Shown here: in pieces, positions 10 to 1,447 of the stretch
How the letters are laid out: each line of letters opens with the position of its first letter
How positions within the stretch are numbered: the stretch's first letter is position 1
Source: Escherichia coli
GTDB lineage: Bacteria; Pseudomonadota; Gammaproteobacteria; Enterobacterales; Enterobacteriaceae
Length of the DNA stretch: 1,453 nt
NCBI RefSeq assembly: GCF_003334255.1
Contig: NZ_QOWU01000158.1
Strand: one strand, 5' to 3'
The notes under the pieces: generated by a model
Databases searched by the model: none
The model's input: the letters and a program-made list of their open reading frames with translations, nothing else
Told to the model about the DNA's origin: nothing
Translations under genes and position numbers: made by a program

Positions 10-19
10 TATGACCTTT
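10..19. repeat. Candidate subterminal inverted repeat, right-end copy (TATGACCTTT)
   Basis: Plus strand 10..19 TATGACCTTT is the exact reverse complement of 1438..1447 AAAGGTCATA. The two copies flank the transposase gene at 9 bp and 6 bp from the window edges. The match does not extend in either direction. Confidence 0.4.
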
Positions 20-35
20 GTCAAATATTGAGCCC

Positions 36-67
36 AAAAAGACCTTACGCAGCTCCGGGAGCTTCGT
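36..67 (-). terminator. Possible intrinsic terminator or RNA 3'-end hairpin (imperfect GC-rich hairpin followed by a U5 tract)
   Basis: Minus strand 67..47 ACGAAGCTCCCGGAGCTGCGT folds as an 8-bp stem (one A-G mismatch) with loop CCCGG, followed after 6 nt (AAGGTC) by TTTTT at 40..36. The gap between stem and U-tract is longer than in canonical terminators. Confidence 0.2.
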
Positions 68-86
68 TATATCGCGGATTAAAGAA

Positions 87-102
87 CCTGAAACAGTCAG
101 AC
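87..102. repeat. Arm of 16-bp imperfect inverted repeat (pairs with 241..256)
   Basis: Reverse complement of 87..102 (GTCTGACTGTTTCAGG) matches 241..256 (GTCTGACTGCTTCAGG) at 15 of 16 positions. Confidence 0.7.
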
Positions 103-240
103 TGTATCTTGGATTTTACAAACTCTTATTCGGGGATTTTAGCCCCATGACGATTTACGCAGTGAGCTGGCCTCTTTCTATATGCAGGTATTGGCGCATT
201 CTGACCTCCTGAATTCTTTTACGAGGATCACTCATTCCGT

Positions 241-256
241 GTCTGACTGCTTCAGG
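241..256. repeat. Arm of 16-bp imperfect inverted repeat (pairs with 87..102)
   Basis: See partner arm. The single mismatch is G-U compatible only in the minus-strand transcript. Confidence 0.7.
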
Positions 257-258
257 GT

Positions 259-1392
259 TTAATTTTGCTTCTGCTGACTGAATGATGATTGGGCAGCAAG
301 TGCAATATCCCACATAAATCCAGTCAACTCACGAGCCACCGCCGTAATGGCTACTTGTGATTTTTTCCCTTTTGCTGTCAGACTTCGGTAACGAGAACAC
401 AATCGTTGTTGAGCTTTCCATGCAATATCTTTGGAATATTGTGTTACAGAATCCGGTCGGTAATATATAAGCCATGCACCAACTTTTGCAGGTGTACGAT
501 AAGACCAGGCGGCTTCGTAAAGCAGACGTCTCAGTTCGCTGTTTCCAACTTTTGTTATTCCCCTGGGACGAATGCTGTTTCCACTGGAATATTCCCCTGG
601 AACCAGTCCCAGAAAAGCCATGAGTTGTTTGGGACTGGAAAATCGTGAAAATTCACCCAGTTCAGCAACCAGGGTTATTGCGGTTAGCTGACCAACACCT
701 TTAAGGGCCTGTAACTGGCAGACCAGATTGCACAGAGACCACTCAGGTAACAGGCGGGATATTTCCTGGTCGAGTTGAAGTATGCGATCTTCAATCTGCT
801 CCAGACTCTGACAATAGTGTTGAAAAGCAATCTGTTGAGATGGCTGACTAAATGATTGATTGGCTAACCAGGTTCGATGTTTGCCGGTCCAGTGCTTCCC
901 TGCATAACGTTTGTCTGTTCGCAATAGCATGCTCAGAATTCGCTGTCGGGCAACTCTGCTGTCTCGTTTAGCTGCTGCACGGGCTCTGATTAGATCCCGC
1001 ATAGCTTCATGAGTCAGGTCAGGGATCCAGACAGGGGTAAGTTCACCAGCCCGCAGTAACCTGGCAAGAGAAATTGCGTCCCGATGATCATTTTTGATTC
1101 TGTCTGTCGGTGATTTTGGTATCCGGGAAGGGGCAATAACCTGGCATTTTATATTCATCGCTGTGAGTTGATGATATAGCCCAAAACCACAGGGGCCAGC
1201 CTCATAGCAGGAAAGAATGTTTCCGTAAAGTCCCTGCAATTTCTGAAATAATCGACGTACAGCCTGGGCTTCGTTGTTAATCGTACCATAATAACGAACT
1301 TCGCCAAGCCGTTCAGGTGCAGCAATAGCAACCGCCAACGTTTCTTTATGTACATCCAGCCCGATGTAAGCTGCAATATTTTCCGAATGCAT
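259..1392 (-). CDS. IS110-family transposase / DEDD-type recombinase (RuvC-like N-terminal domain plus C-terminal Transposase_20-like domain)
   Basis: 377-codon ORF, ATG at 1392..1390 and TAA stop at 261..259 (minus strand). N-terminal YIGLDVHK (Asp13), CYEAGPCG (Glu64) and NDHRDAISLARLL (Asp102, Asp105) match the DEDD catalytic pattern of IS110-family transposases. C-terminal LKGVGQLTAITLVAELGEFSRF ... GEYSSGNSIRPRGITKVGNSELRRLLYEAAW matches the family's helix-hairpin-helix domain with its conserved serine (SSG motif, Ser269/Ser270). No frameshift or internal stop. Confidence 0.93.
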   Translation of the reverse strand: MHSENIAAYIGLDVHKETLAVAIAAPERLGEVRYYGTINNEAQAVRRLFQKLQGLYGNILSCYEAGPCGFGLYHQLTAMNIKCQVIAPSRIPKSPTDRIKNDHRDAISLARLLRAGELTPVWIPDLTHEAMRDLIRARAAAKRDSRVARQRILSMLLRTDKRYAGKHWTGKHRTWLANQSFSQPSQQIAFQHYCQSLEQIEDRILQLDQEISRLLPEWSLCNLVCQLQALKGVGQLTAITLVAELGEFSRFSSPKQLMAFLGLVPGEYSSGNSIRPRGITKVGNSELRRLLYEAAWSYRTPAKVGAWLIYYRPDSVTQYSKDIAWKAQQRLCSRYRSLTAKGKKSQVAITAVARELTGFMWDIALAAQSSFSQQKQN

Positions 1393-1397
1393 AATGA

Positions 1398-1403
1398 CCT
1401 CCT
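1398..1403 (-). promoter_or_regulatory. Shine-Dalgarno site of the transposase gene (AGGAGG, 5-nt spacer to ATG)
   Basis: Minus strand reads CCAGAGGAGGTCATT-ATG; AGGAGG occupies 1403..1398 and the start codon 1392..1390. Confidence 0.65.
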
Positions 1404-1437
1404 CTGGAATATCCCACCAATGCTATAGTGAGTATAT

Positions 1438-1447
1438 AAAGGTCATA
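1438..1447. repeat. Candidate subterminal inverted repeat, left-end copy (reverse complement of 10..19)
   Basis: See partner at 10..19. A 10-bp perfect inverted match is expected roughly once by chance in a window this size, so the support is positional, not statistical. Confidence 0.4.

Follow-up and report, generated by a model that had tools for sequence, protein, structure and literature searches.

Perfect inverted repeats at the edges of an Escherichia coli DNA stretch as probable subterminal repeats of the insertion sequence ISEc45

Why does a short piece of Escherichia coli DNA carry a perfect 10-base-pair (bp) inverted repeat just inside both of its edges? The window analyzed here, a 1,453-nucleotide (nt) stretch of contig NZ_QOWU01000158.1 (RefSeq assembly GCF_003334255.1), reads TATGACCTTT on its top strand at 10-19 and the exact reverse complement, AAAGGTCATA, at 1438-1447. 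Its sole long open reading frame (ORF), at 259-1392 on the minus strand, encodes 377 amino acids (aa). A preliminary description, made from the sequence, had read the pair as possible subterminal repeats that bracket the transposase gene of an IS1111-type element. Our analysis points the same way, and we consider it likely, with good confidence, that the pair represents the subterminal inverted repeats (STIRs) of the known insertion sequence (IS) ISEc45, which has an RNA-guided DEDD transposase and belongs to the IS110 family and, in ISfinder, to group IS1111. A repeat finder agreed with the sequence on two 10-nt arms that are 100% complementary and separated by 1418 nt; no perfect extension is possible on either side, and the repeat reaches 12 nt when one mismatch is allowed. 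The features concerned are the following.

259-1392, minus strand: transposase gene with a DEDD (RuvC-like) domain and a Tnp domain (from the ORF, Pfam, and the RefSeq name).
10-19, unstranded: right-end arm of the subterminal inverted repeat, AAAGGTCATA on the transposase strand (from the sequence, the GGTCATA core in 10 relatives, and co-variation of the inner bases).
1438-1447, unstranded: left-end arm of the subterminal inverted repeat, TATGACCTTT on the transposase strand (from the sequence, and AGATG(G/A/C)TATGACC in all relatives).

RefSeq names the gene 'IS110-like element ISEc45 family transposase'. Its product matches PF01548 (DEDD_Tnp_IS110, E = 3.6e-15) and PF02371 (Transposase_20, E = 6.9e-23), and its translation contains GLVPGEYSSG, in agreement with the IS110-family motif G--P----SG. 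Supplementary Table 5 of Durrant et al. 2024, which reproduces the ISfinder grouping, lists the element as 'ISEc45 / RE / IS1111', where 'RE' denotes a bridge RNA predicted in the right end, and the sequence file of Siddiquee et al. 2024 holds ISEc45 in its IS1111 block, after ISEc11. Copies 100% identical to the whole window are present in several E. coli genomes, and the window was matched, at least in part, in 1467 of 5426 complete E. coli genomes and in 246 plasmids from E. coli, Klebsiella, and other enterobacteria. The window is thus one complete ISEc45 copy with 5-7 nt of flank, given that the repeats are a defining, catalogued feature of a known IS, and it can be annotated as such.

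The position of the arms relative to the ends of the element was resolved by aligning filled with empty insertion sites. Most ISEc45 copies interrupt IS66-family transposase genes (ISEc23, ISEc22, and ISEc43), and one lies in xylG. The empty ISEc23 site reads GGAAAGAAAAA-CT-TTATGTTC and the filled site AAAAA-CT-CTTATGACC...ACCAT-CT-TTATGTTC, which gives an element of 1446 bp that occupies window 8-1453 or equally 6-1451, the two placements being equivalent because the CT dinucleotide is shared. The same length follows from the reading frame of the two gene halves around the ISEc22 copy. Comparison of empty and filled sites in ISEc23 and xylG revealed no target duplication beyond the shared core dinucleotide. 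Where the core is TT (xylG, the locus designated L007, and the Vibrio locus L014), TT is kept at the right-end junction and CT at the left-end junction. On the transposase strand, the left end consists of AGATGG followed by the repeat and the right end of the repeat followed by AG; the mapped ends lie 2-4 nt (window-left) and 4-6 nt (window-right) outside the arms. Because the ends were mapped in this way, the arms are truly subterminal, by 6 nt at the left end and 2 nt at the right end. The earlier suggestion that the window spans essentially the whole element holds as well, since only 5 nt of target DNA (AAAAA) and one shared CT stand at its left edge.

1-5, plus strand: target DNA AAAAA from the interrupted IS66-family tnpC gene, outside the element (present in the unoccupied ISEc23 and xylG sites; independent flanks diverge upstream).
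6-7, plus strand: CT, one of two copies of the shared core (the other at 1452-1453), TT at TT-core insertions (a single CT in the empty ISEc23 site; TT in xylG, L007, and L014).
8-9, minus strand: 2-nt terminal extension of the gene-distal (right) end, AG on the transposase strand (from junction mapping; ...GGTCAT(A/G)AG is invariant in all relatives).
1448-1453, minus strand: 6-nt terminal extension of the gene-proximal (left) end, AGATGG, made up of core AG (1452-1453) and ATGG (from junction mapping).

Two observations accompany this mapping. The window begins 5-7 nt outside one mapped end, yet it finishes exactly at the other; if it reproduces the database entry for ISEc45, that entry holds target bases on one side, and Siddiquee et al. 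describe such boundary errors as common among ISfinder entries of this family. Separately, the off-target insertion in xylG (L002 2990-3010 and 4440-4470; empty site in L004) gave a product 1 nt shorter than expected. The two proposed target guides described below might set the cores 1 nt apart there (AAAAA-TT versus TT-ATATTG), and the alternative is a homopolymer error in the assembly. We considered a shifted element boundary and rejected it, given that ISEc23, the ISEc22 frame, and the TT-core sites all give 1446 bp.

The strongest support for the repeats comes from related elements. A protein search returned a large family with 56-86% identity, nearly all of 367-388 aa. To ten loci fetched from that search we added five more from a scan of genome contigs for the 14-mer CCCCGAATAAGAGT, which yielded 120 loci, 5 of them true elements and the rest chance matches. 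Relatives with both ends came from Salmonella, two Vibrio, two Nitrosomonas, Limnoglobus (Planctomycetota), and uncultured or metagenome genomes. Every one of them carries AGATG(G/A/C)-TATGACC about 55 nt before the start codon and GGTCAT(A/G)-AG some 240-290 nt past the stop codon, and shares with ISEc45 the same 6+2 end geometry (AGATGG; AG). Ten relatives from several phyla (58-86% protein identity) keep the 7-bp core TATGACC/GGTCATA unchanged, save for one base in one arm of L021. The perfect repeat spans 8-10 bp in most relatives, with a full range of 8-20 bp. Farther in, the bases change, and they change on both arms together: L021 has CCGTC/GACGG in place of CCTTT/AAAGG, and L141 (minus strand) carries a perfect 20-bp subterminal repeat, TATGACCGCCATCAACCCCC, whose inner 13 bp are unrelated to ISEc45 and which covers a -35-like TTGATG. 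This joint change argues that the inverted symmetry itself is maintained, beyond the conservation of each arm alone. Copies that exclude a repeat, or homologues that lack the pair, had been named beforehand as what would speak against the assignment; we looked for both, and no full-length copy excludes either repeat, and close and distant homologues alike keep them. Relatives L012/L013 and L018/L019 have kept the left end and the gene and are missing the right end, other transposase genes (rve/HTH type; DDE_Tnp_1) having replaced the region right after the stop codon. With the downstream region and right end replaced, these elements should be immobile unless the RNA and the end are supplied in trans.

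The target is conserved along with the ends. Insertion is site- and orientation-specific, as is typical of the IS110 family, and E. coli and distant relatives share both the position and the antisense orientation within IS66-family tnpC. The relatives from distant phyla all lie antisense inside such genes, flanked by DDE_Tnp_IS66 and DDE_Tnp_IS66_C matches (Pfam) on the opposite strand, and the codons at the insertion are always G-(R/K)-K-N-(W/Y/F)-(L/M)-F. Loci L010, L015, L016, L019, L021, and L022 (58-86% protein identity; Proteobacteria, Planctomycetota, and uncultured genomes) share the same tnpC codon block and the antisense orientation.

How might the repeats act? Durrant et al. describe STIRs as defining the IS1111 group and flanking the programmable donor sequence, with a 3-bp ATA...TAT version in the IS110 group; the outermost bases of the ISEc45 repeat are likewise ATA...TAT. 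By analogy with other IS110/IS1111 elements for which this was shown experimentally, ISEc45 may be excised as a circle with abutted ends. Its predicted junction, ...TTGACAAAGGTCATAAG|AGATGGTATGACC..., would bring the arms together as AAAGGTCATA-AGAGATGG-TATGACCTTT, a palindromic recombination site with an asymmetric 8-bp spacer containing the crossover dinucleotide. The cited literature on IS110/IS1111 elements describes how circles form, promoters at their junctions, a downstream non-coding region that is essential, and the guide order of IS1111-type seekRNAs.

The RNA that would guide such recombination has a candidate downstream of the gene. The non-coding stretches of ISEc45 measure 251 nt downstream and 61 nt upstream of the transposase gene, an asymmetry that agrees with the IS1111 assignment, and the 251-nt region after the stop codon holds a conserved block of about 170 nt. 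A scan of the window against Rfam (E <= 1) matched no family, and the RNA was consequently defined by comparison of relatives. The minus strand of window 84-260 folds at -54.9 kcal/mol (z = -4.78), with 0 of 200 shuffles as stable. The fold comprises a closing stem of 16 bp (241-256 with 87-102), an arm in which stems P2 and P3 are joined by a large internal loop and capped by an apical hairpin, and a second hairpin at 132-146 with single strands on both sides. RNAalifold recovered P2, P3, and the hairpin in alignments of both 7 and 13 relatives, and both-sided changes were seen in 4 of the 5 pairs of P2. Four segments of this RNA are proposed guides.

87-256, minus strand: structured non-coding RNA, a bridge RNA or seekRNA candidate (from the fold, the alignments, and the Durrant 2024 prediction).
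212-221, minus strand: 5' strand of the internal loop, UAAAAGAAUU, proposed target guide (equals the target left flank plus core on the window top strand).
175-184, minus strand: 3' strand of the internal loop, CAUAUAGAAA, proposed second target guide (equals the flank adjacent to the left end plus core AG).
147-156, minus strand: single strand 5' of the hairpin, AAAUCGUCAU, proposed donor guide (from co-variation in relatives).
122-130, minus strand: single strand 3' of the hairpin, AAUAAGAGU, proposed donor guide (equals right-end ATAAG plus core AG).

The target guides follow the flanks of the elements that carry them. At 175-184, 42 of 48 core-adjacent positions match the cognate flank across 12 elements, compared to 27.8 after permutation, and none of 100,000 permutations reached 42. 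E. coli variants of ISEc45 that sit within different IS66 members differ exactly in this strand (CAUAU, CACGU, and CACGG). The UU of the 212-221 strand can pair with a CT or a TT core, its AAAAA and AAGAA classes follow the flank in 10 of 13 elements (P = 0.07), and 9 of its 10 positions agree with the L007 target, AAAAAGAATT. The computed order is also that of an IS1111-type RNA: 212-221 is complementary to the transposase-sense strand (core plus right flank) and 175-184 is identical to the left flank plus core, and the rule of Siddiquee et al. for such elements is that the segment complementary to the target top strand precedes the bottom-strand match.

The donor guides co-vary with left-end position 6 and right-end position -3. 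Window position 1448 varies among elements (G/A/C) and does so together with the RNA: the 147-156 strand reads A(C/U)CAU in relatives, complementary to left-end ATG(G/A)T, and co-varies in seven of them, with ACCAU accompanying ATGGT in L014, L093, and L021 and AUCAU accompanying ATGAT in L015, L032, L022, and L141. The 122-130 strand reads AAUAAGAG, that is, right-end ATAAG plus AG, and is the internal copy of a direct repeat, AAACTCTTAT, found at 3-12 and 120-129. It is nearly invariant in 13 relatives, of which L022 reads CAUAAGAGU, and in L021 the equivalent strand has AUGAGAG alongside a right end of CATGAG.

From these assignments we propose a division of labor in which the internal loop of the RNA would pair with both target strands around the core, and the donor would be read by the two single strands beside the hairpin, which would cover its spacer and the outermost 1-3 bases of its repeat. 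The rest of the repeat (GACC and the inner part) falls outside the stretch paired by RNA and would then most likely provide symmetric seats for two transposase subunits holding the donor. Given that the donor guides cover only the 8-bp spacer and the outer 1-3 bases of the repeat, the rest of each arm is best explained as a transposase seat.

Several results weigh against this account. A synthetic 60-nt query for the circle or tandem junction found no such junction in the 5426 E. coli genomes; its matches at 80% coverage were ordinary junctions between left flank and left end, to which the query aligned because the right end resembles the ISEc23 flank. ISEc23, the commonest target, fits the target guides imperfectly, at about 6 of 9 and 7 of 8 positions. 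ISEc45's own 5' donor guide pairs with the left end through two wobbles and is the weakest of the assignments. The relatives compared are phylogenetically related, and the permutation P values therefore overstate their independence. Finally, a nucleic-acid hairpin would predict co-varying arms just as well. The resemblance behind the junction alignments is an observation in its own right: the ISEc45 right end, GACAAAGGTCATAAG-AG, resembles the ISEc23 flank by the left end, GCCAAAGAACATAA-AG (window 1-30; L143 1990-2030), closely enough for the query to align in 78 genomes; other IS66 targets do not show it. Either chance or a donor mimicking its target may account for it.

The hairpin is the alternative that survives best, and we still regard it as unlikely. 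The repeats would then act mainly as nucleic acid rather than as protein seats, either in DNA, as a cruciform or stem-loop at the circle junction with a 10-bp stem and an 8-nt loop, or in RNA, as a stem in junction-crossing transcripts that serves processing, termination, or translational control. The co-varying arms, which form a perfect stem of up to 20 bp in L141, and the mere 8 nt between them in the circle suit this explanation. However, the outer 7 bp are invariant and not merely complementary, which is the pattern of sequence-specific recognition, and a transcript from the predicted junction promoter would begin past the left arm and would not include the stem. In other IS families, too, terminal repeats co-vary in this way, since one transposase reads both ends, which also counts against a hairpin.

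That junction promoter is the basis of a second alternative, which draws on the following feature.

19-24, minus strand: TTGACA at the inner edge of the right-end arm, a perfect -35 hexamer with a putative promoter role, which in a circle with abutted ends would stand 17 nt before TATGAC of the left-end arm (from the sequence, and the same position in relatives).

Relatives carry TTGACA, TTGAAA, TGGACA, or TTGATG at the -35 position, and the left arm opens with TATGAC preceded by TGG, an extended -10-like element (TGgTATGAC). At the predicted junction, the two stand as TTGACA - 17 nt - TGgTATGAC, with a spacing of 17-18 nt in relatives, and end joining would thereby create a promoter for the transposase gene that is assembled only in the circle, as is suggested by analogy with ISEc11 and ISEc21, where junction promoters were shown experimentally. 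It could be argued from this architecture, and from the precedent of those two elements, that conservation of the arms is mainly that of a promoter, the left arm being the -10 box, the right arm spacer DNA, and the inverted symmetry incidental. We find this improbable, marginally more so than the hairpin: spacer DNA needs no conservation, yet GGTCATA of the right arm is invariant; the co-variation of the inner arms in L021 and L141 has no promoter rationale; and TATGAC is without the conserved final T of a -10 hexamer.

The two remaining alternatives can be set aside quickly. That the repeats belong to the interrupted IS66-family host element or target site is suggested by the location of most copies inside IS66-family transposase genes and by the resemblance of the right end to the ISEc23 flank, but it is refuted by the empty sites, given that both arms are missing from the two unoccupied target sites examined (ISEc23 and xylG) and that the xylG insertion has both, so we give it almost no weight. 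A chance inverted repeat without function is just as remote: in 3000 dinucleotide-preserving shuffles of the window, a perfect 10-bp inverted pair arose somewhere at a mean of 1.18 per shuffle (at least one in 59% of shuffles), as the preliminary description had cautioned, whereas a pair whose arms fell within 30 nt of opposite window edges arose in 0.1%, and retention of the repeats, with unchanged spacing from the gene and with compensatory changes, in relatives of as little as 58% protein identity refutes chance and is a stronger argument than the shuffle statistics.

With the arms read as the STIRs of ISEc45, the place of the element among its relatives can be considered. Several properties are those of the IS1111 group: the curated ISfinder assignment in Supplementary Table 5 of Durrant 2024, a perfect 10-bp repeat 2 and 6 nt inside the mapped ends, the longer, RNA-encoding non-coding region downstream of the gene, and the guide order. 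Two stricter ones depart from it. The terminal extensions of IS1111-group elements are 7+3, or occasionally 6+3, and those of ISEc45 are 6+2; transposases of the group are 330-350 aa in length and related to that of IS1111 over their full length, and that of ISEc45 has 377 aa and scores only 53-67 bits against six canonical members. We therefore filed ISEc45 as IS110-family, ISfinder group IS1111. The scores come from a pairwise bit-score comparison against a small set of references from the Siddiquee 2024 file. In it, the best match was IS1533 (154 bits, 31% identity over 341 aa), and IS1111A, IS4321, ISEc11, ISKpn4, ISDar1, and ISKpn2 gave the 53-67 bits mentioned, compared to 132-283 bits among those six; ten IS110-group members gave 24-64 bits. 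The ISEc45 transposase thus falls outside the tight IS1111 clade and branches deep, with IS1533 nearest to it. A published identity matrix likewise places ISEc45 at 15-25% identity to 49 IS1111-group members.

Comparison with known systems gives a similar picture. Like the IS1111-group elements ISEc11, ISKpn4, ISPa11, and IS4321/IS5075 (Partridge & Hall 2003; Siddiquee 2024; Durrant 2024), which have a seekRNA or bridge RNA downstream of the gene, ISEc45 has subterminal repeats, asymmetric terminal extensions, and a DEDD transposase gene followed by a long non-coding region, inserts site- and orientation-specifically without duplication, and shares the guide order and the split of -35 and -10 between its ends. 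Unlike them, it has an 8-bp spacer to go with its 6+2 extensions, and its repeat of 10 bp is shorter than the usual 11-13 bp (Siddiquee 2024), within the 7-17 bp given for the group by Durrant 2024. IS1533 of Leptospira is also assigned to group IS1111 in ISfinder, with its RNA in the right end (Durrant 2024 table), but it is still distant and was compared by transposase only, and the ISfinder IS1533 protein appears frameshifted near its C-terminus. With IS621 and the IS110-group bridge-RNA elements (Durrant 2024; Hiraizumi 2024), ISEc45 shares a recombinase with DEDD and Tnp domains, a CT core common to donor and target, RNA loops that read both strands beside the core, and a short ATA...TAT that flanks the programmable donor bases; IS621, however, encodes its RNA upstream of the gene, in the left end, and has a repeat of only 2-3 bp, whereas ISEc45 encodes its RNA downstream and combines a 10-bp repeat with a correspondingly short donor stretch read by RNA. 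An IS with an RNA-specified target in an IS3-family transposase gene (2024 study) resembles ISEc45 in using a conserved coding block of another IS family, and differs in its host (IS3 rather than IS66), its upstream RNA, and its lack of long subterminal repeats.

ISEc45 works like an IS1111-type element and probably represents a deep side lineage. Somewhat more tentatively, and at a little short of even confidence, ISEc45 and its relatives, with IS1533 the nearest named, could form a separate deep lineage of RNA-guided DEDD elements marked by fixed 6+2 ends, split donor recognition, and clade-wide IS66 specialization. In such a lineage, the RNA appears to read the 8-bp spacer and the ATA/TAT edges, and the protein to read the co-evolving inner repeat; antisense insertion into one IS66-family tnpC codon block across several phyla may parasitize and inactivate that IS family.

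A few further observations concern the element and its surroundings. TGAC-AAAG-GTCA at window 10-24 is a small local palindrome that overlaps the -35 hexamer and the right repeat arm; RNAalifold folded it into a 4-bp hairpin for 6 of 7 relatives, and its bases are invariant, so that co-variation is uninformative either way. A 15-nt direct repeat (87%), GCATTCTGACCTCCT at window 196-210 and GCATAATGACCTCCT at 1389-1403, copies the ribosome-binding site and start codon of the transposase gene into the apical hairpin of the RNA. The AGGAGGTCA motif at these two positions was considered as a relative of the repeat arms (GGTCA) and rejected, because the relatives do not conserve it. Further transposase genes or gene fragments of the IS110 family adjoin an ISEc45-like copy in Vibrio sp. 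SA48 (L014 1-893) and in E. coli WP4-S18-ESBL-09 (L008 3179-3703), which suggests nested or clustered insertions.

In summary, the repeats, the element, and its group were already catalogued, and subterminal repeats are the textbook criterion of the IS1111 group. What our study adds are refinements: base-exact ends, evidence for selection on the symmetry of the repeat, a candidate RNA with assigned guides, and lineage-wide targeting of IS66. Their interest is confined to specialists, and some may already be covered by ISfinder or by published target pipelines. The exact ends could help correct database boundaries, and ISEc45 offers bridge-recombinase engineering a natural system with a short donor stretch read by RNA and, as proposed here, a long repeat read by protein. 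The findings present the ISEc45 lineage as a whole as insertion sequences that may inactivate another IS family.

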